This document shows positions 863 to 63,970 of a stretch of 64,000 nucleotides of DNA, piece after piece. The position numbers were made by a program, and so were the translations under genes. Positions within the stretch are counted from its first letter, which is position 1; each line of letters opens with the position of its first letter. Source of the stretch: a phage; sequence record PZ445446.1. The stretch is one strand, 5' to 3'. Below the pieces are notes generated by a model. It did not search any database, was not told the DNA's origin, and saw only the letters and a list, made by a program, of their open reading frames with translations.

Positions 863-1627
863 TTGAAATTTATCTACAAAGAACACTACCACAAAGGTGT
901 TGTGTGGAGCCTATTTGACGGATCTGGTGGTGCAGTCATTGACTGGGCAAAAGCTGGATATCTGTGCCTGTGCTTTAACGCAAAAGGTGCTGACCACGGC
1001 AGTTATGCAGAGGTGATCACCGATCATCCAAATATTCACTATGTAGATTATTGGATTGATCCATGGTTCCCTCAGGAAACTTTCTGCATGTACCCAGCTC
1101 CGGACTTTGTTCTTGCATTTCCTCCGTGCACCCACTTAGCGGTGTCAGGTGCTGCACACTTTAAGAAGAAGCTGGCTAAGGACCCGTTGATCCAGATTAA
1201 TGCTGTAAAGGATGCTCGGGTTGCAGAAGAGTTGGGAGAGATTTACGATTGCCCGTGGCATGTAGAGAATCCTGTGGGTGTTATGTCCACACTGTGGCGC
1301 AAACCTGATTACCGTTTTCACCCTTCTGACTATGGCGGGTATTTACCGGAGGATGATGTAAACCCCTGGTTTCCTGAATTTATAGCTCCACGTGATGCCT
1401 ATCCAAAAATAACTTGCGGCTGGATAGGTAATGGATTTATAATCCCGGCCACAAAACCTGTCCCGCAAATAGTTGACGCGGTTAGCGGGTATTCCATGCA
1501 ACACGCCAAGCTGGGTGGAAAGAGTGCAAGAACGAAGATGATCCGAAGCCTCACACCACGTGGCTGGGCAAAAGCCGTATTCTTAGCAAACGAGCCTGTA
1601 GTAAGGAGCAGAATTAATGGGAAGTAA
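863..1627 (+). CDS. DNA (cytosine-5)-methyltransferase-like
   Basis: Motifs LFDGSGG (motif I-like), FPPCTHLAVSG (PC catalytic motif IV-like), HVENPVG (ENV motif VI-like), GNG near C-terminus; start moved to in-frame TTG 863 after terminator and GGAGA RBS (track start 833 lies inside hairpin). Confidence 0.55.
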   Translation: MKFIYKEHYHKGVVWSLFDGSGGAVIDWAKAGYLCLCFNAKGADHGSYAEVITDHPNIHYVDYWIDPWFPQETFCMYPAPDFVLAFPPCTHLAVSGAAHFKKKLAKDPLIQINAVKDARVAEELGEIYDCPWHVENPVGVMSTLWRKPDYRFHPSDYGGYLPEDDVNPWFPEFIAPRDAYPKITCGWIGNGFIIPATKPVPQIVDAVSGYSMQHAKLGGKSARTKMIRSLTPRGWAKAVFLANEPVVRSRINGK

Positions 1628-3695
1628 ATTTATGGCATCTGCATACAACCGTTTCGGTGAGCCAAACCCGAAAGCAACTAAGTATAAAAGTGGGGGAAGT
1701 GTGAAACGAGACTATCGTGATGAAAAAGAGGTTGAAACTGTAGAGACTGTTTTAGAAAATACTAAAATTGTCCCTGTTCCACAACAAAATATCGGTCTGA
1801 TGGCTGCACAATATTTTGGTGTGCGATCAGCATTGTCTCAAGAAGACGGTGTGACAGTTACTGCAACATATTTCCCATATTACGACCGCTACGGAAATCT
1901 GTCAGGTTTCAAAAAGCGTGACTGGACGATTCCTAAAGAGCAAAGGGGCCATTTCTCAGTTGTTGGCATAGTAAAGGCTAACTCTCAGATGTTTGGGCAA
2001 AAGCTGTGTGCATCTTCCAACAACCGTAAGCAAATTAACGTTTGTGAGGGGGAAGGTGATGTTATTGCAGCATGGCAGGCTGCATATCAGATACAAGTAA
2101 AAGGGATTCTCACCAACGCTAAAGCCCCGGCAAAGGTGAAGCAGTGGGCTAAAGAGGTCCAGGACGGGATCGATGCAGTTATCAACGGTGGTGATCTGGC
2201 AGGAAAACCCTGCCTACCTTTTGTTGGAATTAACTGTGGATGTGCAAACGCAGTAGATACTTTTGCAAACAATGAGAAGTTTATCCGTAGCTATGGAACA
2301 GTTGTGCTGGCAATGGATAACGATGCAGCTAACGAGGTAGAGAAGCAAAAACACGTCATTAAAGGTGTCGAGGCCACGCACAATATCGCAGCATTTTTGA
2401 TGGCTGATAACGTTTACCACGTAGAATACCCTGGTGAAGTAAACGACCCTGACGGTGTAAAAGATATCCGAGACATGCTGAAGGCTAAAAAGCTGGAAGA
2501 TATTGTCAACATGTTCCGGCATCCTGTTAAATATGTGCCTGATGCTGTGTCGGATTTAGAAGACTTCTCTATCGAGTCTTTGCGGAAAAAGACTTCCAAC
2601 GGGGTAGATATCAGCGCAGAGTTCCCAAAACTGCAAAAAATGCTAAAAGGCTTGCACAAAGGTACACTCGTAATGCTTACAGGCCCATCAGGTGGCGGTA
2701 AAACAACCGTAGCTAAAAAACTGGAACACTGTATTGCAAGATACCTAATGGACCCGACATGCCCGAAGGCTGATGACTATGAAGAGGATGATCGTCTATG
2801 TATGATCCATCTTGAGGAGGACCCAGAGGAAGCAATTAACTCCTTGTATGCAAACCAGTTAGGGTTTGATGTTAAAGAGTTTGTTGAAGATCCTAGCCAG
2901 TTTTTAACTGATCAAGAACACGCAGAGATTCATCAGTCATGGGCAAAAGCTGGAAAAATCAAAGTGTTCAAACATTTCGGGTCTATTCCGGTGGATGAGT
3001 TGATTACCAAGCTTAAGCAAATGGTTTGCCTGTACCATTGCCGTTATATTGTGCTGGATCACCTGTCCATGGTAATTTCAGGGCTTAATGTTAAGGATGA
3101 GCGAAAAGAACTGGACATGGCTATGACCCAACTGGCTGCGTTTTGTAAGCAGTTTAATGTGTTTATCTTGGTGATCGCTCACCTCAAACGTACAGAGATT
3201 GTGCCTCCTAAGGACAAGGATGGTAACCCGTTACCTTTCTGGTATCCTGTGCGAAAAGAGAATTTGCGAGGATCGGCTGGGCTTGAACAGTTGAGTTGGG
3301 TAGTTATAGGTGTCGAGGCCGAAGAAATGGTGGATCGTTCTCGTGGGCGTGTCCGTCTGGTAGGTCTTAAAAACCGTCCAGCAAAAACTTTAGGTATTGC
3401 TGACACTTTAGTTATGGACCCGCACACAGGTAAGTTCCATGATGCCAGTAACTGGTACTGGGACAAAGAAATGCAAATGTTTACAGACGGAGAAGGTGGG
3501 GAGGTTGTTTGGAGACCTCAGGCTATGTTTGAGGATCAGGAGCATGCAGTTGTAGAAACACCTATGGGCAAGGTTGTGGCTGATAAGGTTGTAACTCCTA
3601 CTGTTAAGCCTGTTGACACGCAGGAAGACCTCCAGTACGATGATCCGTCCTCTGACCATGTTCCTGGTTTTGAGGATGATGAAACACCTTTTTAA
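1617..3695 (+). CDS. T7 gp4-like primase-helicase (TOPRIM primase + DnaB-like helicase)
   Basis: TOPRIM-like EGEGD and AMDNDAANE motifs; Walker A GPSGGGKTT; AAGGAG RBS; acidic C-terminus ...DDETPF. Confidence 0.8.
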   Translation: MGSKFMASAYNRFGEPNPKATKYKSGGSVKRDYRDEKEVETVETVLENTKIVPVPQQNIGLMAAQYFGVRSALSQEDGVTVTATYFPYYDRYGNLSGFKKRDWTIPKEQRGHFSVVGIVKANSQMFGQKLCASSNNRKQINVCEGEGDVIAAWQAAYQIQVKGILTNAKAPAKVKQWAKEVQDGIDAVINGGDLAGKPCLPFVGINCGCANAVDTFANNEKFIRSYGTVVLAMDNDAANEVEKQKHVIKGVEATHNIAAFLMADNVYHVEYPGEVNDPDGVKDIRDMLKAKKLEDIVNMFRHPVKYVPDAVSDLEDFSIESLRKKTSNGVDISAEFPKLQKMLKGLHKGTLVMLTGPSGGGKTTVAKKLEHCIARYLMDPTCPKADDYEEDDRLCMIHLEEDPEEAINSLYANQLGFDVKEFVEDPSQFLTDQEHAEIHQSWAKAGKIKVFKHFGSIPVDELITKLKQMVCLYHCRYIVLDHLSMVISGLNVKDERKELDMAMTQLAAFCKQFNVFILVIAHLKRTEIVPPKDKDGNPLPFWYPVRKENLRGSAGLEQLSWVVIGVEAEEMVDRSRGRVRLVGLKNRPAKTLGIADTLVMDPHTGKFHDASNWYWDKEMQMFTDGEGGEVVWRPQAMFEDQEHAVVETPMGKVVADKVVTPTVKPVDTQEDLQYDDPSSDHVPGFEDDETPF

Positions 3696-3753: not shown

Positions 3754-6531
3754 ATGAGCATGTGGTCGTTCGATTTTGAGTCATCCGGTTTGCTGGAAGA
3801 CCCAGATCTTTATTATCACTGCGGCCTGTTTAAAGAGCTGAATAAGAACCGTTTTATGCTGTTCCTTCCTCTGAATGACCGCACACACTACTCCGAGGAG
3901 GATATAGAGAAGGCCAAGAACTTTATTCTGGCAAAGAAAACTCTTTATAAGGATTTTGAAGTTCGCATAGCAGATTTTTCGGAGTTGGAAGGTTGGCTTA
4001 CAGGAAATTCTGACTGGTCACCAACAGCTTTGAACTGCCATAACTGCTACAGTTATGACTTTATGCTGATGGAGAGATTATCCGGTATTCATTTTGATAT
4101 GTTCCGTGATCCTAAATGCATGGGGACTATCAACGACCACCAGGTTAACCTGTTTGATACGTTGGCGATGAGCAGAATCTTGTGGCCTGATCGCCCTTTA
4201 CCAAAAGGTTGTCCGGACTCTGTATTCAACCCGGTTACTAAGAAAATGCAGCCTGTTGGTCCTCACGGCCTTATGGCATGGGGCTACGCCCTTGGTAACC
4301 AGAAAGTTCAAATTGATGACTGGCGCGATCTTCCGTTGTGGAAGTATGTGGATCGTGTATTCGAGGACGTTATCATCCAGGAGCTGCTCTGGAAAGAGCT
4401 GGTAGCGGAATCAAAAGGTGTATTCTACGGCAAATCTGACATGCAGAACTTTATGTACGATCCAGCCAAAGAGAAGCCGAAAGGGTTCAAGAAAATCACC
4501 TGGAAGAACGCATTACGCCGAGGCATGCTGCAGCACTTCCTGATGGAGCTGCAGGCCCGTCAGGGTGTGTATTTCGACATAGATGGGGCTATTGCTTTAC
4601 GTGACCGTTGCGATGCGTGGATGAAAGAGATCGCTGATCGTGTTGAACCTCAACTTCCTTTAAAAGAGTTGTCAATGTCTCAGCGACCCAAGTTCCCTGA
4701 AAAGCCGTTTAACCAAGATGGGACAATCTCCAATAATGGTTGGAAATGGTTAAAAGATAAGCTTGGCTATCCTGTAGACATGAGCGCTTTAGAATTCAAA
4801 GCCCCGCCTAAGCGAGCATTTACCTCCACAGGAGATGTCAGCAAGATGGGGATAAAATGGTGCGAAGAGATGGGCTGCAAAGACCCCGACAAGATGGCTG
4901 ATTTCTTGAGAGGTTATATTAAGGGCACCTCCACACCACAACCTTTACCTAAAGAGCTGATGGATCAGGCAATAAGTGATCTGCAGCAGAAGCGAATGCC
5001 TGACTGCAAGATACCTATGAAAATCAGCAATCAGGACGACATTAAGCGATACCTGATCAGTGCTGGTTGGCTTCCGACAATGTGGAGAACTAAGGATGTA
5101 ACTAAGGACAGCAAGAAGAAAGCTCTACCTGATGCAGATGTTGATGCACGAGTATATGCATACATGGACGAGCTTTTAGAGTCAGAGTATTGTGACCTAA
5201 TTATCAACTTCTGGAACAAAACTGATGCTAAGTTTCAGACAACAGTGCACAAGTTCCGAAGCTTTCCTAACTCCGAAAGGATTAAAAAGGAAGTGTTCGG
5301 GAAAATACGCAGAAAAGCCAGGGCACTTATTACTTCTCCGCAACTGAAAGATACGTTTGGACACCTATGTCCGAATCTTGAAAAATTGAACGGAGAGATG
5401 GCTAAAGATATCGTCTTGTGGTTATCATTGCGAAACCGCAGATCGGTCCTTGATCCAATCAAGGAGGATAAGGTTGATACTGGTCTTCTTAATCACCCAC
5501 GTTTGAAGATTGACCATAAGCTTCCTGCTAAAAGCTCTGGATTAACAAACACTTCCCGACAGAAACACAGTATTTGTGCAAACATGCCTAAACCATCTCC
5601 TAAAGTGGTTATGGGTAAAGAGATGCGTAGCTTGTGGGGTGTTCCTCCTGGATATTTTGAGATCGGTATTGACGGGTCCAACTTAGAGCAGCTTATCGGG
5701 GCTTGGGGTGCCTTTGAGTTCGACAACGGCTTGTACTATGATGTTGTAAGTAACGGAGACGCACACCAAAACAATGCTGAGGCATATACAAAAGTAGCAG
5801 GCAGAGAGGTGTCTCGTAACGACGGTAAACCTATCACGTATGGGGTTATGTACGGGGCACAAAAAGATAAAGTTGCAGATATGCTGGATATCTCCCCAGA
5901 GTTGGGGCAAAGGGTGATCGATGCACTTTGGGATGCCAACCCCGGTCTTAAGGGGCGCAAAGAGGATCTGGAGAAATTCTGGGAAGCAACAGGTAAGAAG
6001 TTTATCTACTCTTTTGATGGTCATGCTATCTGGACCCGATCTAAACACTCTTTACTTAATGCATACCAACAAAATGGTGGTGCATCGCTGTGTGACTTAG
6101 TTGGGATACTCATGCACCACCAAATGGTGAAGCGTGGGTGGTACGATGAAGGTGTCCGTCGTATTATTTATTACCATGATGAGTACCAACTTCAGGTCCC
6201 TGACACACCTAAGTATAAGACTGTGTACACCTTCGACACAATTGAAGAATTGGAAGCATTTAAGGCAGAGCAGGAGGCCAAACTTCATGTGTTCGACGGT
6301 CATAAGTACAAAAAGGCACGCAAGGATGAAAACGGAAACGAAGTGGTTGACAGAGACGGAAACACGGTGTACGATCCTATCCTGAACGATGACGGAAAGC
6401 TTGAACTTATCTGGAGCCCTGTGGGTGAAATGGTGGTGCATTGCTTCTGGCAAGCTTCTAAAATGATGGGCGTTCCATTCCAGATCACAGGTGAATACTT
6501 GTGCGGTCGTAACTGGGGTGATTGTCACTAA
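3754..6531 (+). CDS. family A DNA polymerase, T7 gp5-like, with insertions
   Basis: N-terminal exo motif FDFESSG..YHCG; AWGYALG; motif B-like TYGVMYGAQ; motif C YYHDEYQ; C-terminal NWGDCH resembling T7 gp5 end; 925 aa. Confidence 0.85.
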   Translation: MSMWSFDFESSGLLEDPDLYYHCGLFKELNKNRFMLFLPLNDRTHYSEEDIEKAKNFILAKKTLYKDFEVRIADFSELEGWLTGNSDWSPTALNCHNCYSYDFMLMERLSGIHFDMFRDPKCMGTINDHQVNLFDTLAMSRILWPDRPLPKGCPDSVFNPVTKKMQPVGPHGLMAWGYALGNQKVQIDDWRDLPLWKYVDRVFEDVIIQELLWKELVAESKGVFYGKSDMQNFMYDPAKEKPKGFKKITWKNALRRGMLQHFLMELQARQGVYFDIDGAIALRDRCDAWMKEIADRVEPQLPLKELSMSQRPKFPEKPFNQDGTISNNGWKWLKDKLGYPVDMSALEFKAPPKRAFTSTGDVSKMGIKWCEEMGCKDPDKMADFLRGYIKGTSTPQPLPKELMDQAISDLQQKRMPDCKIPMKISNQDDIKRYLISAGWLPTMWRTKDVTKDSKKKALPDADVDARVYAYMDELLESEYCDLIINFWNKTDAKFQTTVHKFRSFPNSERIKKEVFGKIRRKARALITSPQLKDTFGHLCPNLEKLNGEMAKDIVLWLSLRNRRSVLDPIKEDKVDTGLLNHPRLKIDHKLPAKSSGLTNTSRQKHSICANMPKPSPKVVMGKEMRSLWGVPPGYFEIGIDGSNLEQLIGAWGAFEFDNGLYYDVVSNGDAHQNNAEAYTKVAGREVSRNDGKPITYGVMYGAQKDKVADMLDISPELGQRVIDALWDANPGLKGRKEDLEKFWEATGKKFIYSFDGHAIWTRSKHSLLNAYQQNGGASLCDLVGILMHHQMVKRGWYDEGVRRIIYYHDEYQLQVPDTPKYKTVYTFDTIEELEAFKAEQEAKLHVFDGHKYKKARKDENGNEVVDRDGNTVYDPILNDDGKLELIWSPVGEMVVHCFWQASKMMGVPFQITGEYLCGRNWGDCH

Positions 6532-8329: not shown

Positions 8330-8718
8330 TGAAAAATATTTGGGATATCGATATCTTTGAAGCCTCTAAGCTTGATGGTGCTGATGGAGTGATTATGGTG
8401 TCTGATGGCAAGGCAACACTAACTTCTGGGGATATCATCTATGCCTTGGACGAGCTGGCGCTTCTGAAATCTACCGGTAACACTTTAGAGGAGCGTCTTC
8501 AAGGCTTCGCCTTCAAAGAAGGCACAAATACCGCCATGATGTGCACCACACGGACAGTTCAAGTTGGTAACGGTGTCTATATGATCATTGCTGTGTGTCC
8601 TAAATTCAGCAACGTCAACAAAGATGATGCTGACGCTGTCAACGATGTGGTTGTTCTCTTCGTGGGTGACGCTATGGCAGATCTGATGAATGCAGGAGAA
8701 GCAGCAAATGAAGACTGA
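8326..8718 (+). CDS. hypothetical protein
   Basis: ORF track 130 aa; ATGA overlap. Confidence 0.5.
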   Translation: MMKNIWDIDIFEASKLDGADGVIMVSDGKATLTSGDIIYALDELALLKSTGNTLEERLQGFAFKEGTNTAMMCTTRTVQVGNGVYMIIAVCPKFSNVNKDDADAVNDVVVLFVGDAMADLMNAGEAANED

Positions 8719-9010
8719 AAACATCACCCCCGCAGGGTTCTTAAAAGTATACCGTGAACTGCTATATACTACAGAGGACAGTGTTCTAGAGTATCCAGAA
8801 TATCTTTTGCTGTATAAGTATCTGCAGGAGGCTGGTGAAAATCTGCCAGTTAGTGCAGAAGGTGGTCCGAACTGGATATACAGCGCATGGAGAAAGGTTG
8901 ACATTCTCCCCGACCCAGGTAAAGATATGGTAGTTTGGCAGCTTATTAACAACATCGGGATTCCAATCTTTGATGAAGCTGTTAAAATCTATTTTGAACT
9001 TGACGATTAA
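8708..9010 (+). CDS. hypothetical protein
   Basis: Track ORF trimmed to ATG 8708 after AGGAG. Confidence 0.45.
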   Translation: MKTENITPAGFLKVYRELLYTTEDSVLEYPEYLLLYKYLQEAGENLPVSAEGGPNWIYSAWRKVDILPDPGKDMVVWQLINNIGIPIFDEAVKIYFELDD

Positions 9011-9356: not shown

Positions 9357-9722
9357 ATGGAACAAATGAACGATCAAGCGTCGGTTGCGATGAACGAGCA
9401 AGAACAACCTCAAGAATTTTTCTTAGGGTTAAGTAAAGATCAAGTGTCTCTTCTGCTAGTGCTTTCTTCTTTCATGGGAAGACTTCAGGAGCTCACACAA
9501 CAGCCAGAGGCTGAACAATTATTCCAAGCTTTGCGTGAAGAAGAAAAATATCGTCGTTTGGACTATGCCTTAGGTTGGGTAGCTCAACAACGAGATATGC
9601 TGATGGCCCTCTCTGGGACCACAAGTTTTGCAATGGGCCTGCTGGCTCAAGTTCAGGACAAATTAATTCAAGCAGGGTTTGCACACACGGCAAACACTAA
9701 CGAAGAACAAGGAGACAAATAA
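9357..9722 (+). CDS. hypothetical protein
   Basis: ORF track 121 aa; GGAG RBS. Confidence 0.5.
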   Translation: MEQMNDQASVAMNEQEQPQEFFLGLSKDQVSLLLVLSSFMGRLQELTQQPEAEQLFQALREEEKYRRLDYALGWVAQQRDMLMALSGTTSFAMGLLAQVQDKLIQAGFAHTANTNEEQGDK

Positions 9723-10948
9723 TGAGCGTTATTCAACAATTTGCTAACCCGATGAATCCGCGTGAAACTGTTTTACTGGCTCACGGCATGATTAAACGTG
9801 TCAGCATCAAACCTATCAAAGGTGCTGATCCTACAACAGGTATTAAAACCACTGTGTGGCAAGGTAAGAAAATTGAGTCCAGCCACACCATCTCTTTACT
9901 GATTTCTGAACTGGATTCCTCTGATAACCTGCTTCAAGGTGGTGAAGAAGTCTGGATCAGTATGGGTGATAAACTGCTTAAACCGGGTCATCAAGACTCT
10001 GTCTCTGTTAAAATTGATGACAAGTGGGAAACCGTAACACCGGGATGGATCGTAAATATCCCTTTGAAGGCAAACGAGCATAACGGTAAGACCTATTACA
10101 AAGGCTCACTGGCTAAGATGGTCAAGCTGGGGGCAGGAGAGGCTCCAGCAGCGACTCAGCAGCAAAAACAGCAACAAGGTGCACAATCACAAGGCCAGAA
10201 GCAGAAACCTCAGCAGAATGCCAATCAGGACGTTTTACGCATCTATGGTGATGTGACTCAGATTGTTGGCAACGTGGTTACTGTTAATGACCACAAGATT
10301 GGCGAAGGTGCTATGGTTGTCACTGATGAGCAGCTTAAAGACCTGGTGGTAGGTGGTCGTGTTGCAGCCATTGTTGACAAAGACACCGGAAACATTATCA
10401 GTGGTTTCAAAGCCTATCCACCTAAGTCAGAGAACGGCACCCAAGGCTCTGGTGGCAAGCGTAAATCCTCTTACGACCCTATTGGTGTGGAGACGGGACA
10501 TAGCATCAATGCGTTGCAAATCATCCTAGATCGCGGGTTTAAGGTGGACGACCCACTAAGCGTGGCTAAAACACTGCACGTAGTCACCATTGAGCTTAAG
10601 AAAGAGTATGCTCAAGCCACCAACCGAACTGAGGATGAAGTAGGTGCCAGTGTCGGTAATGCGGTGTTGAACGCTTGTCGCCGTATTGACAAGAAAACGA
10701 AAGTTGATGATTTTGCAGCGGCAATTACTGCAGAAGCAAAAGATGTCTTGACTAATCTGGCTGAGCCGTTGTACGATTGGATCAAGAACGGTGCTGGGTC
10801 AACTGACCATCAAGAACCTCAGGCTGCCAAACAGGAAGCAGCTCCACAGCAAAATACTGTAGACGCTCCTCCTGTAAATGATGAGGAAGATGACCCGATG
10901 GATCAGAATCCAGCACAGTACGCCTTTGATGATGACATCCCATTCTAA
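9722..10948 (+). CDS. putative ssDNA-binding protein with SSB-like acidic C-terminal tip
   Basis: Q/G-rich low-complexity linker followed by C-terminal DDDIPF identical to E. coli SSB tip; position in replication module. Confidence 0.45.
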   Translation: MSVIQQFANPMNPRETVLLAHGMIKRVSIKPIKGADPTTGIKTTVWQGKKIESSHTISLLISELDSSDNLLQGGEEVWISMGDKLLKPGHQDSVSVKIDDKWETVTPGWIVNIPLKANEHNGKTYYKGSLAKMVKLGAGEAPAATQQQKQQQGAQSQGQKQKPQQNANQDVLRIYGDVTQIVGNVVTVNDHKIGEGAMVVTDEQLKDLVVGGRVAAIVDKDTGNIISGFKAYPPKSENGTQGSGGKRKSSYDPIGVETGHSINALQIILDRGFKVDDPLSVAKTLHVVTIELKKEYAQATNRTEDEVGASVGNAVLNACRRIDKKTKVDDFAAAITAEAKDVLTNLAEPLYDWIKNGAGSTDHQEPQAAKQEAAPQQNTVDAPPVNDEEDDPMDQNPAQYAFDDDIPF

Positions 10949-10963
10949 CATATAGTTAACATA

Positions 10964-10991
10964 GCCCTGCCCGAAAGGGTGGGGCATTTTT
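10964..10991 (+). terminator. intrinsic terminator (same hairpin as 818..845)
   Basis: GCCCTGCCCGAAAGGGTGGGGC then ATTTTT, directly after SSB-like gene. Confidence 0.6.
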
Positions 10992-11010
10992 GTATAAGGA
11001 GATCTGAAAA

Positions 11011-11427
11011 ATGACATTAGAAGATATCATTGTTAAGCCTGAGAACTATGACCAATACAACCTGTCAACTCAATCTGTAGACCTTGGATGCGCCACGGTC
11101 AGTGCGTGGCTGGTTAACGGAAAAGAGCTGGATAAATGCTTAGAAGCTCACATGTCTATTAACAAGTTTCTGGATGAAAATACTCACTGGCTTGAGGGTG
11201 CAGGCGTATATGCTTCATGGTTGGAGAGTATGGGATTCGACTACCAATCTGAAGAGGGGTGGTGGAGCTATTTAGCTATCTGCCCAGAGACGCTGCAATG
11301 CTTCATGAAATATTCTGAAGATTTAGAGTATCGCGCTGTGGTTGACAGTGCTATTGCCCGTTATAGCCGTAAACCTTTTTCCCACGACATTAAAACTGTG
11401 GAAGAATTTGTTGAAGTTTTCTGTTGA
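11011..11427 (+). CDS. hypothetical protein
   Basis: ORF track 138 aa; AAGGAG RBS. Confidence 0.55.
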   Translation: MTLEDIIVKPENYDQYNLSTQSVDLGCATVSAWLVNGKELDKCLEAHMSINKFLDENTHWLEGAGVYASWLESMGFDYQSEEGWWSYLAICPETLQCFMKYSEDLEYRAVVDSAIARYSRKPFSHDIKTVEEFVEVFC

Positions 11428-11455
11428 CACAGGTTGAAAGGTGTGCAATTATAAC
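11424..11455 (+). promoter_or_regulatory. sigma70-like promoter candidate
   Basis: TTGACA 11424-11429 and AATTATAAC about 17-20 bp downstream. Confidence 0.35.
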
Positions 11456-11523
11456 TTCATAGAACGGGAGGACGTGATGAACGAAGAAAACTGGGATGTA
11501 TAACTAACAGGAGGCCACTGCCC

Positions 11524-11721
11524 ATGATTTATCGAATCCGTGTAAGAGAAGATGCACCAGGCTGTTACTTTGACTGGCGTGGGTGGTGGTTTCTCCACCC
11601 GATGGATGGACTCACAGATAGAATGCTGGATGCTGCCCTTTATACAGATACCGACATAGAATATAATCTCTATCTGAAGGACGGTATAGATAACGGTCTA
11701 TTTGAAGCAATTCCTGTGTAA
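11524..11721 (+). CDS. hypothetical protein
   Basis: ORF track 65 aa; AGGAGG RBS. Confidence 0.5.
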   Translation: MIYRIRVREDAPGCYFDWRGWWFLHPMDGLTDRMLDAALYTDTDIEYNLYLKDGIDNGLFEAIPV

Positions 11722-11789
11722 GAGACTGTGATAGCCATGTTTTATGATCTTCCTGTAGCACCACCACCTGTTGAACCTGGAGAACTAAG

Positions 11790-12215
11790 ATGATCTATGA
11801 AATGCCAAAACTGATTCGTGACGATGCCCAAAACGCTCACACCATTATTATGGGCAAACGCATGGATATTATTTGTCATAAAGATTTCTGGGAAGGAAGT
11901 TACTTCACAGAGTATTTTGGTAAACTGGACAATGGTCTGCTGATCCAGTTCTACACCGATGCGGAAAACAACATTCACTGGGAGTTCGAAACTGAAGATA
12001 TCCATAAACTTTTCACCTTCCTCGGTATTAAGGTTGAGGCCAAGTTTGAAGAAGGTGAGTGCGACGATTGTGGATTCTATGAGGTAACAGATTTCTACCT
12101 TCCAAGTGGTAAAAATCTCTACTACGAAAGCCACTTCGGCAACTCAAATATGCCACAGGGTTGGGATGAGTTTTTGGAAATTGCAGAAGAGGAGCTGAAA
12201 TACCGTGATTATTGA
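11790..12215 (+). CDS. hypothetical protein
   Basis: ORF track 141 aa. Confidence 0.5.
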   Translation: MIYEMPKLIRDDAQNAHTIIMGKRMDIICHKDFWEGSYFTEYFGKLDNGLLIQFYTDAENNIHWEFETEDIHKLFTFLGIKVEAKFEEGECDDCGFYEVTDFYLPSGKNLYYESHFGNSNMPQGWDEFLEIAEEELKYRDY

Positions 12216-12663
12216 TACTGTAAAGGGAGATCTAATCTCCATTTTCAAGAAAGGGTCAGGCCACATGATCCACGGTTGTAACTGCTTTCACACAATGGGT
12301 GCAGGTATAGCGAAAGATATTGCCCGTGAGTTCCCTCAAGCACTGGCAGCCGACAAAGAGACTGCTTATGGTAATCTAGACAAGCTGGGTATGTTTTCTT
12401 GTTGGGAGCATTTTGCCAAGACCAGGGTCGTATATGGAATCAACCTGTATACCCAGTTCTACCCAGGGCCCAATGCTGAATACTTCTCAATCATGAAAGG
12501 TTTTGAGCGAGTCAACGAGGTATTCAAAGGTATGTCATTGCCGTTCTACATTCCTAAAATCGGATGCGGTATTGGAGGTCTAAAGTGGGAACATGTAGAA
12601 GATGTAATTAATCTTGCAACCACAGATATTGATGTGGTTGTAGTAGAGTACAAAAAGTGTTGA
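12205..12663 (+). CDS. macro domain protein (ADP-ribose binding/processing)
   Basis: HGCNCFHTMGAGIAK signature typical of macro domains; 152 aa. Confidence 0.7.
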   Translation: MIIDTVKGDLISIFKKGSGHMIHGCNCFHTMGAGIAKDIAREFPQALAADKETAYGNLDKLGMFSCWEHFAKTRVVYGINLYTQFYPGPNAEYFSIMKGFERVNEVFKGMSLPFYIPKIGCGIGGLKWEHVEDVINLATTDIDVVVVEYKKC

Positions 12664-12914
12664 CGACCATCTTCTGAGGTGATATAGTTTCCACAACAAC
12701 TAAAAGAGGAGAGCACTGTGGAGACTAAAATCTTAATTCTTGCTGTGGTAGATACAACCGAAGGAGCTATATTCGAATCTGCAGGAGGGTATTTCTACCT
12801 ACCATACGGAAAAAGAACTTCCGAGCCAAGTAAAGATTCAATCCTCAAAGTGTTCCCGTGTGCTTTCTGGCTGGAGATTTTGGTATAAGATTGCAGATGA
12901 TTTGGGAGAGAATT

Positions 12915-13109
12915 ATGAGAAACAAGAAAGAACTTTACTCTGGTGAGTGGATCAACGATCAACAGGTGGGAGAGGTAACCTGCTTCCGATGTTTTACCAG
13001 GTACAATCTTAAAACTGCACCAAAAAGTGTTCCAAAGACTGATGGTTATTATATAAAAGAACCTCATTGCCCAAAATGTAAATGCCGATTGTACTGGAGC
13101 AATCTGTAA
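12915..13109 (+). CDS. small zinc-ribbon-like protein
   Basis: Track ORF trimmed to ATG 12915 after GGGAGAG; CFRC ... CPKCKC cysteine pairs. Confidence 0.45.
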   Translation: MRNKKELYSGEWINDQQVGEVTCFRCFTRYNLKTAPKSVPKTDGYYIKEPHCPKCKCRLYWSNL

Positions 13110-13113
13110 GAGG

Positions 13114-13141
13114 TTGACATCTGAAAACTGCAGTGTATAAT
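13114..13141 (+). promoter_or_regulatory. sigma70 consensus-like promoter
   Basis: TTGACA 13114-13119, 16-bp spacer, TATAAT 13136-13141, TG just upstream of -10. Confidence 0.55.
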
Positions 13142-13172
13142 ATACGCATAAACTAACAGAGAGCGATGTATT

Positions 13173-13364
13173 ATGGTAATTTTTAACCGGGATGGTATCA
13201 TAGTTAGACAGCACCCGTTCCTTGAATACTATCAAATTGAGCAATGGTGCTACGGGGATTGCAGTCACTCCTATGGGCAAAGTTGGGGATACCGTACAGT
13301 TTTTGAATCCACAGACCTTGACAAAGTAAGACAGAAAGTTTTAGAACTTATTAACAACAAGTGA
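13173..13364 (+). CDS. hypothetical protein
   Basis: ORF track 63 aa downstream of promoter. Confidence 0.5.
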   Translation: MVIFNRDGIIVRQHPFLEYYQIEQWCYGDCSHSYGQSWGYRTVFESTDLDKVRQKVLELINNK

Positions 13365-13371
13365 GTATGAT

Positions 13372-13704
13372 ATGGTAACATTAGAAAGACGTAAAGCTAT
13401 TGCCGCCACACTGGCAGACATCTTTTGGGATTGTAATTTAAAATCTACCCGAAATTGTGGCGCATCTGTAGATGTATTATTCCCACGGCCTACTATTGTT
13501 GCAATGGGCAACCTTCTTGATGTGGTATATGGAGCATGGGACAAGGAAGGTGGATTCTATATCTGGCAACCTGACTACGGGACTTGGAAAGAGGTTAGTG
13601 GTTCTACGGACTTCACTCCTGCAGTGGCTAAAATGGATGGCTGGAAAATCTATGTCGGTAACGACATGGAACTGAAAGGCGAAATTGTTTACTGGTTACC
13701 TTAA
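13372..13704 (+). CDS. hypothetical protein
   Basis: ORF track 110 aa. Confidence 0.5.
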   Translation: MVTLERRKAIAATLADIFWDCNLKSTRNCGASVDVLFPRPTIVAMGNLLDVVYGAWDKEGGFYIWQPDYGTWKEVSGSTDFTPAVAKMDGWKIYVGNDMELKGEIVYWLP

Positions 13705-13724
13705 GAAAGTGCAGGAGATAAAGT

Positions 13725-13970
13725 ATGAACAAAGGGTGGACATTTGTAGACGGCGTTGAAAACATGCCTCTAGGAAAGTATATTGTAGCCATGGCAGATG
13801 AGAATGGCAAGGTTGATTTCGGAGCTTGCGAGATTGTTCTTGCAGGATCTGGTGACCATGTGCACAAAACTGGGATAATTAACGGTCATTTCTACTTTGA
13901 TTACAACCCTGTTGTGGCGTATATGGCTATGCCAGAGTTAGAGCTCCCAAAGGAGGGTGCAGATGTTTAA
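13725..13970 (+). CDS. hypothetical protein
   Basis: ORF track 81 aa; GGAG RBS. Confidence 0.5.
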   Translation: MNKGWTFVDGVENMPLGKYIVAMADENGKVDFGACEIVLAGSGDHVHKTGIINGHFYFDYNPVVAYMAMPELELPKEGADV

Positions 13971-14160
13971 GCTTAAATCTGCATGGAACATCGCTGTGGG
14001 GGATGAGATCCGCATCCCAGGTGGAAAGACCATTATGAAGATATCACGTATCGAGTATGAAGGTGATCGTGTATTTCATATCTTTGCAGAAGATGGTCGA
14101 GAAATTTATATACAGGCAGGCTCTCACATCTATATCAGTAAGAAAGGGGACGACAAATGA
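13957..14160 (+). CDS. hypothetical protein
   Basis: ORF track 67 aa; overlapping start. Confidence 0.45.
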   Translation: MQMFKLKSAWNIAVGDEIRIPGGKTIMKISRIEYEGDRVFHIFAEDGREIYIQAGSHIYISKKGDDK

Positions 14161-25120: not shown

Positions 25121-25540
25121 ATGAACATTAAATCTAATAATCCGGCATATAGCTTTGATAACGCTTTTTGTCACGGTCCGGCGGCGAAAGGATTCGAAAT
25201 CGATGGTAAACTAATTATTGTCAATGTTGACGGGGAAGAGGTTGCAGTATATCCGGTGGCAGACGTAAAAAGCCGTTTACAATGCCGCATGGATGTTACC
25301 GCCTATCAGCTTGATCCGGTCCGCATAGTTGCCCTGGTCCTGGAAGAAGAAATTAAAGCCATGCACCATAGCAACAGATTTATTGGTGACGCGCAGGATA
25401 ATATGAAAGTATGCCGCCATAAAGTTAATGAAGTGCTTAAAGAGTACGGCTATAAAGATCTTATGATCAAACGTGAGGAAAAATTCCGCTACCGTAACGA
25501 CCTGGCAAATCGGATTTTTGAAATATACGAATCATTATAA
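25121..25540 (+). CDS. hypothetical protein
   Basis: ORF track 139 aa; last plus-strand gene before convergence zone. Confidence 0.55.
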   Translation: MNIKSNNPAYSFDNAFCHGPAAKGFEIDGKLIIVNVDGEEVAVYPVADVKSRLQCRMDVTAYQLDPVRIVALVLEEEIKAMHHSNRFIGDAQDNMKVCRHKVNEVLKEYGYKDLMIKREEKFRYRNDLANRIFEIYESL

Positions 25541-25560
25541 TTTTTTAACTGAATTATCAA

Positions 25561-25584
25561 GGGGCTTAGGCCCCTTTCTTTTTG
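25561..25584 (+). terminator. intrinsic terminator
   Basis: GGGGCTTAGGCCCC hairpin followed by TTTCTTTTTG. Confidence 0.6.
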
Positions 25585-26189
25585 TCTGCTCTTCTCCTAC
25601 CATAAACGGCCCTACCTGGCAAGTGGAATAATTGACTAGCCATCAATCCCACATACTGTACAAATATACATGGAAAATAACTATTGCATAATTTTTCATT
25701 GTGTGGTAGCAAGTCCATTTTTACCCGTTTTCTCTCCCAAAAGTGCACGTAATGCCGCTATTGCACAAATTTTAACCTGATGCACATCTCCAATATCTTG
25801 TCAACAACTAAAAATCTTTATAAGTCATACACTTACACAGCATCGAAAGCGTGTTCTACGCGAAAAATCGAGTATAACTATAGCCGCCAGATCTCAGAAT
25901 TCACGTACGCACGCCATTCTATAGCCTGCAAAGTATTTATTCCAACCACAGAATAACGGAATAGTCAATACCTGCATAAAATAATTATTCGTGTAAACTG
26001 CATAACATAAATCAGCTCAGGTGTCAACATTTTTCGTAAACAGTCCGAAATTATCACGATGAGCTATCATAAACAGAGAAATATTTAGTCGTCTAATGTT
26101 TACTGTACATTACTATACTGACTGGAATCATTAGATGACTAAGAGAAAGATAAGAAATAATTAATAATGTAATTATTTTACCTGTAACA

Positions 26190-26500
26190 ATAAGGCAACT
26201 ATGCAAACGAATGGCATGGCGCGACGGAGTCGCGACATAATATAAAAGCAGTAACCATCACCCCCGTGATAGTTTGTCTGCAAACTATTAATCAGATCAT
26301 AGTTGCCTTGTATTTAGTTAATCATGACATAACAAGCAAGGCAACTATAGATCTTCTAATAGTTGCCCTGCTTTTATATTATGTCATAGGAACGCCCGAA
26401 GGGGTGACCTAGTCACCTGGTATAGCCAGCGAAAGATTATTAACTTGTCGATTGTTATCTTGTTAATTGTTTTCATGCAAACGAATGGCATGGCTTATCA
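26190..26500. repeat. cluster of inverted and direct repeats in non-coding DNA
   Basis: AAGGCAACTAT at 26192 and 26338 with inverted ATAGTTGCC(T/C)T at 26299 and 26359; 20-bp direct repeat ATGCAAACGAATGGCATGGC at 26201 and 26475. Confidence 0.6.
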
Positions 26501-28060
26501 TCTATGCGTGAACAGTGAGGCATGCAATAGTAACAATTGTTATTGTATCCAGTGTGTTGAGTATGCCCAGTGTGTCACTATTATGTCATATTATGTCACA
26601 GTATGTCAGACAAGTTTTCCTCCTCTTTGTCAAGTGCTGCATGAAAAATTTACAAGCTTGTATGGTAGCATTTTTGCGGCCCTGTTTACATTCAGTGTTG
26701 TATGTATAATCCTTGTTGTGTGGGCGTTTAGACGTCTGGACGGTCAGAAGTTTGCAGGTCAATATCTAATCTATTGGCTGCTAACTATATCCCCCACAAA
26801 TAATAAGAAATATAATTGTTATGTGCGTAAACAGTAACCCATGTTATCAATCCCTGTATGTATCGCCAGTGGTGCGCATAATGGGTATTATGTTAAATTG
26901 CCCGTAATGATAACAGTTCTCACAATGATAGGTATTCTCATTCATCCACACAAAATAGGTTGCAAATGTTGTGCCACTGTGTGAACGGCCTGGCCTATTA
27001 ATTTCTCTCACTGCCTCGATATTTGAGAATTGTTATAAGAATGAGAAGTATTCCCATTCCGTCCGCCTGGCAGCACTCCAGTAGCTACCGGCTCCTGACA
27101 GGGCAGCACTCCTGTAGGTCAGGTCAAAATCGTGGTAGAATTGGGCCTGTTCAGATATTTCTGACTGACTCTTCAGATCTGTGTGGGAAAAGCCAACCTC
27201 TCCGGAGGGGCAGGGGAGGTCAATTAAAAAATTTACGTGGTGTATGAAGCGCTCTTCAGGTAAGGCATGTATTATGGGATGAAACCCTCTTCAGGCAATG
27301 ATATTTGTGGGTGTGATATTTGCTGGAAAGCCAGATATGACGGGACTCCCGGCGGGGATGGGGTAGTACAGACAGGGAAAATATGGGGATGTAGTTGGGT
27401 AAATTGATCAGACAGGTAGAGTATGGAATATGTTACAAGTATGTTAAATAGGGAGGATGAATATCTGCAGGATTTGTGTGTAAAATCAAAGACTTAAGTG
27501 GTGTTGTGGTATTTTCTATAAATAATTCAAGTTTAATAGGTAATATTTGTCTCTATCCACTTTGTGTGGTAAACAGATTCAGATGAAATTGGTTTACAAG
27601 TGTATACATAATATACAAATTAAAGATACAAGAAACCCCCCTCCCCCTTCGGCTACCATTCACCTTTTCCTCTGACTGGTACTTAAACACTTATTCAGAC
27701 TCTTCAGGTTATCACCCATATATCATATGGCAGTGACTGGTGTCCTCCGGCCCCTCTTTCGTCACCCGTCCGCTTCGCCATGCTAATGCCATAGCCAATG
27801 GTTCGGTTGTTCACTCTGTTCACTCAGGTGTATCTCCATACCCCTTCAAACCGAAGAGAACAGAAAACCCGAATTACTCGGTAAAAGAAAAGAGAAGAAC
27901 TTAATTTTATCAGGATAGGCAAGAATGTCAAGGCATGACTGCTCACTAAACAAGCAAACAGTCATGTGTGGAAGGTAAGTGATTGTGGTGGTGGGAAATT
28001 TAGTTGAAAGATGTGTTATAGGTGCGCTTCCAGCACTTTGGCCGGGCAGCTAATTGTGTG

Positions 28061-62849: not shown

Positions 62850-63611
62850 TTAAAGTTCCATAAAGTTTTCTACGGTCTCAATGAATGTTTTATCAGAGAA
62901 AGCATCAACCGCCCCGTTAAACCAAACTGGGATGCCGCGATCCTCATATTGGTAAATATCACTACGTGAAATACCATTCTCCCCTAGCTGCTGTGAGTCG
63001 TATTTGTTAACGATCAGCAGTTTGGTTCCCTTATTGCAGGCAGGGAATAGCTCCCAGTTAAAATTGATAACTGTGTTGGAACACCCTACAAGGATAACCA
63101 TATCATTACTCGTAAGAGAAGTCAACAGGTCATACATGTCTGTATACTTCGGAGCTACTTCTCCGAAGAACACCACATTAGGTTTAACCCAGGTATACTT
63201 TCCTGCATCTACCTCAGAGTATCCAATGTCCTTAATGACGTCACTTCCTTCATCGTCCTCATAGACTATTTCTGGCAAATACCCGTGAACATGTAAAATA
63301 TCTTCATGTTTTACACCAGCACGCTCCAGCAAATCATCTACATTGGTGGTAAGGTTGATCACACGACCAGACCAGCGGGAATACCACTCAGCGATCCGAA
63401 GATGTGCAAGGTTAGGCTCAACACCGCCTAGAGCTACACGACGTGCATTGTAAAAGTCATGCACCTTGTAGTAGTTCTTGGCAAAGGTGTGGATGTTGCA
63501 CACCTCATCGATGCTGAAATTCTCCCACATTGCAGTGCTACCAGATCGGAAAGTGGGAATACCAGATTCAGCGCTCAAACCAGCACCGGAGATAATAATC
63601 AGTCGTCGCAT
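62850..63611 (-). CDS. Sir2-family (sirtuin-like) protein
   Basis: GAGLSAESGIPTFR NAD-binding signature, TTNVDDL, catalytic-like HVHG; no obvious Zn-binding Cys tetrad. Confidence 0.75.
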   Translation of the reverse strand: MRRLIIISGAGLSAESGIPTFRSGSTAMWENFSIDEVCNIHTFAKNYYKVHDFYNARRVALGGVEPNLAHLRIAEWYSRWSGRVINLTTNVDDLLERAGVKHEDILHVHGYLPEIVYEDDEGSDVIKDIGYSEVDAGKYTWVKPNVVFFGEVAPKYTDMYDLLTSLTSNDMVILVGCSNTVINFNWELFPACNKGTKLLIVNKYDSQQLGENGISRSDIYQYEDRGIPVWFNGAVDAFSDKTFIETVENFMEL

Positions 63612-63619
63612 AAGTGTCC

Positions 63620-63970
63620 TCAGTAGATGTTTTGTTTAATCTCTATTCCAAACTTTTTAAACGAGTCAGCTGCAAGCATGAATTTACGAGCCGCTGATGG
63701 GTTAGAAGTATGCACGAAAATCTTCACGTTGTCAACTACAGGGGGCTTACCAAATACAAATTTTTCCTCCAACATAGATAGGCAATCGTACCCTTCGAAC
63801 ACCTCTCCAAGGTCGTTGTCCATGTGCCACTCAGAAACGCGTCTGTAGAGCTTTCCCCTATCGTTAATAAAATCTATAAACTCGGAGGAATTCTTTAGCC
63901 AAATAGCGTCTGGGAGCCCATAATTTGACGGATCTCTCAAGTCATCCAGCCACACAATCAACTTCTTCAT
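63620..63970 (-). CDS. hypothetical protein
   Basis: ORF track 116 aa. Confidence 0.5.
   Translation of the reverse strand: MKKLIVWLDDLRDPSNYGLPDAIWLKNSSEFIDFINDRGKLYRRVSEWHMDNDLGEVFEGYDCLSMLEEKFVFGKPPVVDNVKIFVHTSNPSAARKFMLAADSFKKFGIEIKQNIY

Follow-up and report, generated by a model that had tools for sequence, protein, structure and literature searches.

The gene tk.4 of phage T4 was the single significant hit in a genome-wide transposon screen of T4 against the defence system DarTG2, and its knockout becomes DarTG2-sensitive (bioRxiv 10.1101/2025.11.20.689424). The product has been named AdfM (anti-DarT factor Macrodomain); the evidence is genetic, stems from a preprint and comes without enzymology (bioRxiv 10.1101/2025.11.20.689424). 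A second phage-encoded stand-alone macrodomain, AdfM of PhiKZ (gp104), strips thymidine-linked ADP-ribose off DNA in vitro and acts against DarTG2 as an orphan antitoxin (PMC13309987). Among cellular macrodomains, SCO6735 of Streptomyces coelicolor, encoded by a DNA-damage-induced gene, lacks the catalytic lysine, releases thymidine-linked ADP-ribose from DNA and protects E. coli against DarT (PMC9411070). With the exchange Q85A it no longer hydrolyses thymidine-linked ADP-ribosylated DNA, and N27S leaves hardly any of this activity; Asn27 locks Gln85, the backbone of residue 25 (Val/Ile) places the proposed catalytic water, and K89 and K94, located on an extended mobile loop after the glutamine, have been proposed to clamp the DNA (PMC9411070). 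Human TARG1 (OARD1) removes thymine-linked ADP-ribose from DNA, and yeast Poa1p acts on a small molecule, being an ADP-ribose 1''-phosphate phosphatase.

Here we compare these systems with a macrodomain gene found in a window (the whole stretch of DNA analysed, 64,000 nucleotides; PZ445446.1) that belongs to a Vequintavirus and shows 99.9% identity with Escherichia phage JeffSchatz, in which the gene corresponds to bas55_0090.

The gene and its surroundings

The macrodomain gene (12205..12663, plus strand) runs from a GTG start to a TGA stop (ORF list and sequence) and encodes 152 amino acids, i.e. a single domain; a preliminary description of this DNA had placed a stand-alone gene at exactly these coordinates and was right on both counts. 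The GTG at 12205 is well supported as the start codon by a Shine-Dalgarno-like element read from the sequence (GAGGAG, 12189..12194, plus strand, 10 nt 5' of the GTG), by the alignments of homologues, T4 Tk.4 included, which begin at residue 1, and by an in-frame TGA (12196..12198, plus strand) that ends a longer frame from ATG 12166 and thus fixes the start at the GTG. This longer frame is the annotated form of the gene in PMBT16; in a three-way DNA alignment position 12198 is A in the window and G in both JeffSchatz and PMBT16, which therefore read TGG. The gene is under purifying selection, as comparison with two orthologues gave dN/dS values of 0.10 and 0.08 (dN/dS ~0.1), and its GC content (0.43, against 0.43 for the window) gives no sign of a recent foreign origin.

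The stop of an upstream ORF of 141 amino acids (11790..12215, plus strand; ORF list), which belongs to PHROG 8157 (unknown function) and has no Pfam match, overlaps the start of the macrodomain gene by 11 nt, an arrangement that makes co-transcription and translational coupling of the two probable. A conserved vs-tk.4 pair was considered and rejected, as the 141-aa ORF is not a homologue of T4 Vs (E 33). The primase/helicase (1617-3695) and the DNA polymerase (3754-6531) are both encoded upstream, the latter ending 5.7 kb before the macrodomain gene, and ~14 small ORFs, all in PHROG families of unknown function, lie in between. The gene sits among small, presumably early genes, and the term 'replication module' used in the preliminary description fits it only loosely. 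The stretch around it has more sigma-70-like promoter motifs than expected (33 versus 17.6). The ten flanking ORFs, all in PHROG families of unknown function, gave no functional clue; the sole Pfam match among them is a phage zinc-binding domain (12915-13106), and the ORFs next to the gene, none of them a DarT gene, gave no Pfam match to an ADP-ribosyltransferase. Scans of the whole window for tRNAs and Rfam families were both empty. At ~50 kb from the macrodomain gene, a Sir2-family protein is encoded on the minus strand (62850-63611); a cyclic-phosphate-processing receiver domain is found beside it, and in JeffSchatz also an RNA ligase.

Fold, class and nearest relatives

A profile search with the 152-aa protein gave 26 bits for Pfam family PF01661 (Macro; E 9.7e-6, gathering score 22), a family present in 76 of 120 among the homologues listed, and PHROG 335 was matched over the full length of the protein (E 6.1e-60). 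The AlphaFold2 model (pLDDT 96.8, pTM 0.91) contains the three-layer alpha/beta/alpha macro fold, and Foldseek with this model yielded TARG1, DarG and Poa1p at probability 1.00 and TM 0.7-0.8. Likewise, the profile of the family found five solved macrodomains in the PDB at E 1e-15 to 1e-12 (BT1257 1e-15, SCO6735 1.5e-14, TARG1 3e-14, DarG 2e-13, Poa1p 1e-12). The macro-domain assignment, already made in the preliminary description and borne out by Pfam, PHROG 335, the fold and the ADP-ribose-binding loops, is far beyond chance. As to its subfamily, the best 15 PDB profile matches and the top 16 Foldseek matches all fall into the ALC1-like/TARG1-like class, and matches to nsp3 Mac1 are far weaker (E ~7e-3); the nearest solved relatives are of the ALC1-like/TARG1-like class and not of the MacroD, PARG or viral Mac1 types.

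The highest TM-scores (0.78-0.80) are reached with TARG1 (4J5R/4J5S), a protein of equal size, and the DarG macrodomains of Thermus aquaticus (5M31/5M3E) and M. tuberculosis (5M3I) share the fold at TM 0.76-0.77. The best or near-best PDB sequence matches are SCO6735 (5E3B) and Bacteroides BT1257 (2FG1/2AFC), both Gln-type ALC1-like proteins, albeit at ~23% identity. Poa1p (6LFQ-6LFU) has the top Foldseek E-values and a common H-x-C-N-C motif, and 'Poa1p-like' appears as a label in GenBank records of the family, but identity amounts to ~22% and the yeast protein carries long insertions (~170 alignment columns; TM normalised to Poa1p 0.64-0.69).

A classification as DarG was rejected. The NCBIfam equivalog model NF048014 scored 46 bits against a curated cut-off of 250 bits and was matched only at profile positions 2-144 of 338, and the PADLOC model of DarG at positions 3-143 of 329; the C-terminal DarT-binding domain, the catalytic lysine and an adjoining DarT gene are all missing. 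T4 Tk.4 is likewise matched by the DarG models no further than its macro part.

By its sequence the protein represents the phage Tk.4/AdfM family in a Vequintavirus. It shares 40% identity with T4 Tk.4 over residues 1-150 (E 1e-44), and both are single domains of equal length that align end to end and contain the motifs HGCNCFHTMG and NLYTQ; they differ in that T4 belongs to the Straboviridae and the phage described here to the Vequintavirinae, in their gene neighbours and in the anti-DarTG2 phenotype, which has been shown for T4 only. An even closer relative (68% identity) occupies the tk.4 position (regB-vs.1-vs-[tk.4]-tk) in Krischvirus UPWr_E1, and since this gene product reaches just 44% identity with T4 Tk.4, the protein from the window nests within the diversity of tk.4 orthologues. 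Homologues of the Tk.4 type were found in 2,735 of 50,697 phage records.

Residues and loops of the predicted active site

The signature that the preliminary description had considered diagnostic of macro domains, GCNCFHTMGAGIA, was found at residues 24-36 (codons 12274..12312, plus strand), where it covers the end of strand beta-2 and the first glycine-rich ADP-ribose-binding loop (MGAGIA, 31-36). In 107 aligned homologues, G24, N26, C27, M31, G34 and A36 are invariant, and G32 is conserved in 104 of the 107. The second glycine-rich, diphosphate-binding loop, PKIGCGIGG (residues 117-125, codons 12553..12579, plus strand; IGCGIGG, 119-125), contains the invariant residues P117, G120 and G122, and G125 is retained in 105 of 107 sequences. 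It resembles that of DarG (GNGGL, compared with GIGGL in the window protein and a family consensus GIAGG) and those of SCO6735 and BT1257, which are also glycine-rich.

Between the two loops, Tyr82-Thr83-Gln84 (codons 12448..12456, plus strand) is invariant in 107 of 107 homologues. Alignments with TARG1, DarG, SCO6735 and BT1257 put Gln84 at the position of the catalytic lysine (K80 of DarG, K84 of TARG1), which is occupied by glutamine in SCO6735 (Gln85) and in BT1257. Asn26 corresponds to N22 of DarG and N27 of SCO6735 in HMMER alignments, and BT1257 also has an asparagine in the first loop; TARG1, in contrast, has a serine there (PMC9411070). The second residue of the TARG1 dyad Lys84/Asp125 is likewise replaced, Gly124 being located at the site of Asp125 in an alignment to TARG1 'IGCGLDRLQW'. 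The preliminary description had held that absent catalytic residues would speak against its reading. The lysine and aspartate known from DarG and TARG1 are in fact missing, but the position of the lysine is taken by the invariant Gln84, paired with the invariant Asn26, and given that this is the arrangement of SCO6735, the exchange of Lys for Gln does not refute that reading. PhiKZ AdfM, a Lys-type, DarG-like protein (N23/K78) that is imported into the phage nucleus (PMC13309987), is set apart, going by its description, from the Gln-type protein of the window.

The similarity to SCO6735 does not extend to the loop that follows Gln84 (FYPGPNAEY), which contains no lysine and, in the profile alignment, falls 5-6 residues short of its counterparts in SCO6735 and BT1257, so that counterparts of Lys89 and Lys94 are missing. 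The invariant Gly24 sits where SCO6735 has Val25; the side chain at this position may not matter, as the role proposed for it in SCO6735 is borne by the backbone.

Candidate substrates and functions

We consider it probable that the protein is a single-domain ADP-ribosylglycohydrolase of the TARG1/DarG/SCO6735 (ALC1-like) class and that, as a hydrolase of the Tk.4/AdfM type, it serves to remove DarT2-type ADP-ribose from phage DNA. Membership in the Tk.4 family and the need of T4 for tk.4 in the face of DarTG2 thus make a counter to ADP-ribosylating defence toxins, as suggested in the preliminary description, the best-supported reading. Host-type promoters would drive its synthesis early in infection, and the protein would bind thymine-linked ADP-ribose on single-stranded DNA of the phage, the mark set by DarT2 of host DarTG2 systems, a substrate that it would presumably share with DarG. 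Hydrolysis of the bond between base and ribose would then release free ADP-ribose and leave replicable DNA, the protein acting as an 'orphan antitoxin'. Catalysis may proceed through the Asn26/Gln84 pair instead of the lysine of DarG and TARG1; as in SCO6735, the glutamine would hold the distal ribose in position while water carries out the chemistry. In favour of this reading we count the invariance of Asn26/Gln84 and their alignment with Asn27/Gln85 of SCO6735, the enrichment of promoter motifs, purifying selection, the homology to Tk.4 and the precedent of PhiKZ AdfM. Against it count the identity of only 40% to T4 Tk.4, the loss of the catalytic lysine of DarG, TARG1 and PhiKZ AdfM, the short loop without equivalents of K89/K94, the 'phosphatase' and 'Poa1p-like' labels in databases, and the residues His23 and Ser30 mutated in Poa1p, which are probably kept as His23 and Thr30 in the window protein.

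These last points lead to small ADP-ribose metabolites as a rather unlikely alternative substrate, in which case the protein would be a Poa1p-type ADP-ribose-1''-phosphate phosphatase or an O-acetyl-ADP-ribose deacetylase that clears by-products of NAD consumption, possibly those of the phage Sir2-family protein or of RNA repair. Several database labels of the family ('phosphatase', 'Poa1p-like', 'A1pp motif') would agree with such an activity, but the 'phosphatase' labels stem from domain names and not from assays. Poa1p structures top the Foldseek list, and His23 (105/107) and residue 30 (Thr in 85/107) probably correspond to the residues exchanged in Poa1p structures H23A and S30A; yet the position of Poa1p Phe152 is probably taken by Gly or Ala (residue 124) in the window family. 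TARG1, too, was originally characterised as an O-acetyl-ADP-ribose deacetylase (PDB names), and the phage does have a Sir2-family gene, adjoined by the receiver domain and, in JeffSchatz, the RNA ligase. This cluster, however, is 50 kb off and on the opposite strand, T4 carries tk.4 without an annotated sirtuin nearby, and the annotation of the JeffSchatz stretches inspected (record 57857-130000) lists no RNA 2'-phosphotransferase, so that no source of Appr-1''-p was found. Since all functional data on the family come from T4 tk.4 and indicate DarTG2, the 'NAD-metabolite scavenger' offered as an alternative in the preliminary description has less support.

Proteins are an unlikely target: the enzyme would reverse mono-ADP-ribosylation by host defence or toxin transferases, or tune phage-directed ADP-ribosylation, in the manner of macrodomains of eukaryotic viruses (PMC9503650). 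TARG1 and SCO6735 hydrolyse glutamate-linked protein ADP-ribose too, whereas DarG acts on DNA only (PMC9411070); moreover, no ADP-ribosyltransferase is annotated in the inspected JeffSchatz stretches, and DarTG2 accounts for the T4 phenotype. RNA, carrying either uracil-linked ADP-ribose or the marks of mRNA-targeting toxins such as CmdT, seems quite improbable as the main substrate, and we know of no uracil-modifying anti-phage toxin. In vitro, TARG1, DarG and SCO6735 do cleave uracil-linked ADP-ribose off RNA, but the adenine modification by CmdT is described as irreversible (PMC13036486). SCO6735 does not act on RNA ADP-ribosylated at the 2'-OH, and its reported activity on 5'-phosphate-linked marks is inconsistent (none in the results, active on phosphate ends of RNA in the discussion; PMC11833690). 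We rejected mRNA ADP-ribosylation by CmdT as the main target, since CmdTAC still defends strongly against T4, a carrier of tk.4 (PMC11618068). Finally, replacement of the catalytic lysine by glutamine could point to a non-catalytic ADP-ribose binder or to a stoichiometric inhibitor of DarT, and the dead variant Q85A of SCO6735 indeed still inhibits DarT ('interaction-inhibition'; PMC9411070). This we hold to be very improbable, as the glutamine at this position is required for catalysis in SCO6735 (PMC9411070), Asn26, Tyr82, Thr83 and Gln84 are invariant in 107 sequences, as expected of an active site, and the protein lacks the C-terminal domain with which DarG binds DarT.

Returning to the removal of DarT2 marks from DNA, it is tempting to speculate, as a tentative extension, that two mechanistically distinct lineages of phage macrodomains are directed against one defence: a Lys-type lineage represented by PhiKZ AdfM and a much more widespread Tk.4 type with a lysine-less Asn26/Gln84 site and SCO6735-like, water-mediated cleavage. 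The short uncharged loop of the latter may confer a substrate range different from or broader than that of DarG (e.g. thymine in DNA and uracil in RNA), or the enzyme might serve mainly phage NAD/ADP-ribose metabolism together with Sir2.

The family, its fold and the function in T4 have been described before, and nothing here is surprising to a specialist. We found no report in the literature on DarTG2 against Vequintavirinae, which are E. coli phages of broad host range that are often considered for therapy. If the preferred reading is true, these phages carry an orphan-antitoxin enzyme that would render them insensitive to DarTG2-type DNA ADP-ribosylation. The gene would then join the NADAR-type AdfN used by some relatives (Bas60-62) against DarTG1, and the prediction of host range from the content of defence and anti-defence genes would be helped. 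The lysine-less Asn/Gln site, invariant across the Tk.4 family, offers enzymologists a small and plentiful model in which to examine the mechanism of the SCO6735 type.

The macro domain gene and its start codon

The preliminary description placed a macro domain gene with the motif GCNCFHTMGAGIA at 12205-12663, and there we find a plus-strand ORF of 152 codons (GTG start, TGA stop) with this motif at residues 24-36. Several independent lines uphold the product as a real macro domain. It scores 26 bits against the Pfam Macro profile PF01661 (gathering score 22) and matches PHROG 335 over its full length (E 6e-60); of 50,697 phage records, 2,735 contain a homologue by tblastn, and the 5.8 billion proteins searched yielded 370 matches at E <=1e-5. 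The AlphaFold2 model, computed with 107 homologues as input, reaches a mean pLDDT of 96.8 and a pTM of 0.91, and Foldseek against the PDB retrieves Poa1p, TARG1, DarG, BT1257 and SCO6735 (probability 1.00, TM 0.7-0.8); among viral models, Tk.4 of Acinetobacter phage 133 (TM 0.88) heads the named phage matches. The dN/dS is 0.10 against the orthologue of Vequintavirus AlexBoehm and 0.08 against that of a Krischvirus, and the GC of the gene equals that of the window. In BFVD the model matches best a Marseillevirus 'SNF2 subfamily protein' (TM 0.93), with 39% identity across the macro part; that a giant virus infecting eukaryotes carries a macro domain under an SNF2 label recalls the ALC1 architecture.

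A GAGGAG (12189-12194, +) lies upstream of the GTG, and the stop of the preceding 141-aa ORF (11790-12215, +) overlaps the start of the gene by 11 nt. In the GenBank record of the relative PMBT16, the gene is annotated from an ATG 39 nt farther upstream. The window has A instead of G at 12198, which creates an in-frame TGA; because this closes the extension, and because T4 Tk.4 and other homologues align from residue 1 onward, GTG 12205 is the correct start.

Over 3 kb around the gene, the window shares 99.9% identity with Escherichia phage JeffSchatz (a Vequintavirus, BASEL phage Bas55), and 122 phage records reach at least 80%. The gene is annotated as hypothetical in JeffSchatz (bas55_0090) and as 'Macro domain protein', 'Poa1p-like family protein' or 'phosphatase' in other Vequintavirus records. 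Sixteen 'Campylobacter phage' records that match 11000-14000 nearly full length (e.g. MG065659, 75.6 kb, 96% identical) seem to be misnamed or to stem from coliphage contamination.

A probable glutamine-type active site

Searched against the PDB, the family profile matches strongly only ALC1-like/TARG1-like macrodomains, namely BT1257 (E 1e-15), SCO6735 (1.5e-14), TARG1 (3e-14), DarG (2e-13) and Poa1p (1e-12). In the alignments Asn26 corresponds to DarG N22 and SCO6735 N27, and Gln84, aligned with SCO6735 Gln85 and its BT1257 counterpart, occupies the catalytic Lys site of DarG (K80) and TARG1 (K84); at the position of TARG1 Asp125 stands Gly124. K84 and Asp125 were located on the aligned chain by way of the human OARD1 sequence. 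The TARG1 residue numbers are those of the SCO6735 paper (PMC9411070).

The preliminary description had held absent catalytic residues to count against a macro domain: the canonical lysine is indeed missing, as in SCO6735, but Asn26 and Gln84 are invariant in 107 homologues. Because G24, C27, M31, G34, A36, D50, N80, Y82, T83, P117, G120 and G122 are likewise invariant, and because T4 Tk.4 shares the NLYTQ motif, the missing lysine is a trait of the family as a whole and not decay of the window copy.

SCO6735 has neither the Lys nor the Asp, loses its activity with the Q85A substitution and nearly all of it with N27S, and rescues E. coli from DarT; its authors regard this Gln as setting SCO6735 and ALC1 homologues apart from TARG1 and DarG homologues (Hlousek-Kasun et al., PMC9411070). 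The window protein has the same arrangement of Asn and Gln without catalytic Lys or Asp, but the loop that follows its Gln is 5-6 residues shorter and is missing the lysines for which a DNA-clamping role has been proposed in SCO6735; SCO6735 Val25 is replaced by Gly24, the role proposed for Val25 being carried by the backbone. Identity as DarG was rejected: the protein scores 46 bits against a cut-off of 250, the NCBIfam and PADLOC DarG models match with their macro part only, the protein lacks both the DarT-binding domain and the Lys, and no DarT gene adjoins it.

Relatives and proposed function

In T4, tk.4 was the single significant gene depleted on a host with DarTG2, the bacterial defence that ADP-ribosylates viral DNA, and a clean knockout was sensitised to it; the gene was named adfM, enzymatic removal of ADP-ribose from DNA being the authors' inference, not a demonstration (HIDEN-SEQ preprint, 10.1101/2025.11.20.689424). 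T4 Tk.4 is 40% identical to the window protein over the full length (E 1e-44). The gene at the tk.4 position of Krischvirus UPWr_E1 (3001-3456 of its record), between regB/vs.1/vs and tk, is 68% identical to the window protein and only 44% identical to T4 Tk.4. By this pattern the window protein falls within the range of variation among genuine tk.4 orthologues, and the identities imply that the gene has evidently been exchanged laterally between Straboviridae and Vequintavirinae. PhiKZ gp104, another macrodomain that bears the name AdfM, was shown to strip off thymidine-linked ADP-ribose in vitro and to confer protection from DarTG2 (Morgan et al., PMC13309987); it has a DarG-type N23/K78 pair, unlike the Asn/Gln type of the window protein.

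The analysis shows the gene, its fold and class, its residues and its homology directly. As to what the protein acts on, how it works and what it does for this phage, we infer that it is probably an orphan-antitoxin-like glycohydrolase, which would clear phage DNA of DarT2-type thymine-linked ADP-ribose with an SCO6735-like Asn/Gln active site rather than a DarG-like lysine. Family, fold, residue pattern and T4 function are already published, and GenBank relatives already name a macro domain protein; new here are only the AdfM function, proposed for the Vequintavirus copy, and the note that the family is of the Gln type.

Processing of a small ADP-ribose molecule, as by a Poa1p-like phosphatase or an O-acetyl-ADP-ribose deacetylase, seems rather unlikely. 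The database labels point to it but are not assay-based; His23 and Thr30 are conserved at positions mutated in Poa1p structures, a correspondence partly taken from the Poa1p sequence. The same phage also has a Sir2-family gene (62850-63611, -; PF02146, E 5.5e-27) by an adjoining gene for a cREC_REC 'cyclic-phosphate processing receiver' domain protein (63620-63970, -; PF20274, E 1.3e-14) and an RNA ligase, but this cluster lies 50 kb from the macro gene on the opposite strand, and a 2'-phosphotransferase annotation was not found in the JeffSchatz stretches inspected. The RNA ligase comes next in JeffSchatz, past the window end, and the three genes form an NAD/RNA-repair-type cluster.

Proteins are a possible substrate by analogy, since TARG1 and SCO6735 de-ADP-ribosylate them (PMC9411070), and uracil marks on RNA are possible too, whereas CmdT marks are unlikely because CmdTAC still blocks T4. 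Non-catalytic binding is unlikely given the invariant active-site residues, and removal of ADP-ribose from phage DNA is the function we favour.

Genomic setting

The placement in a replication module holds only in part. The primase/helicase (1617-3695) and DNA polymerase (3754-6531) genes do lie upstream, but the latter ends 5.7 kb before the macro gene, and the interval is a run of small plus-strand ORFs, all of PHROG families of unknown function. This stretch has 33 sigma-70-like promoter motifs against 17.6 expected, and of the terminator-like hairpins in the region the strongest is at 10964-10985. The surroundings look like an accessory block read from host-type promoters rather than the replication module proper, and its transcription is probably early.

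Just before the hairpin, a 408-aa ORF (9722-10948, +) of a PHROG family of unknown function, without a Pfam match, has a low-complexity middle rich in Gln and Pro; its acidic C-terminal tail, which ends in DDDIPF, calls to mind those of single-stranded-DNA-binding proteins. Between this ORF and a 138-aa ORF, PMBT16 carries an extra 'endonuclease VII' CDS (8371-8949 of its record), absent at the corresponding site (window 10948-11011) from the window and JeffSchatz and probably a mobile endonuclease insertion. The sole neighbour of the macro gene with any Pfam match is a 64-aa ORF 250 nt 3' of it (12915-13106, +), with the phage zinc-binding domain PF23903 (E 8e-23).

At about 25540-28060, between plus-strand early and minus-strand genes, some 2.5 kb are without an annotated gene in JeffSchatz; GC falls to 0.35-0.39, ORFs are short only, and tRNA and Rfam scans of the stretch found none. 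The equivalent intergenic region (about 2 kb) of Vequintavirus Bas54 tolerated zero transposon insertions (10.1101/2025.11.20.689424), which suggests an essential non-coding function.
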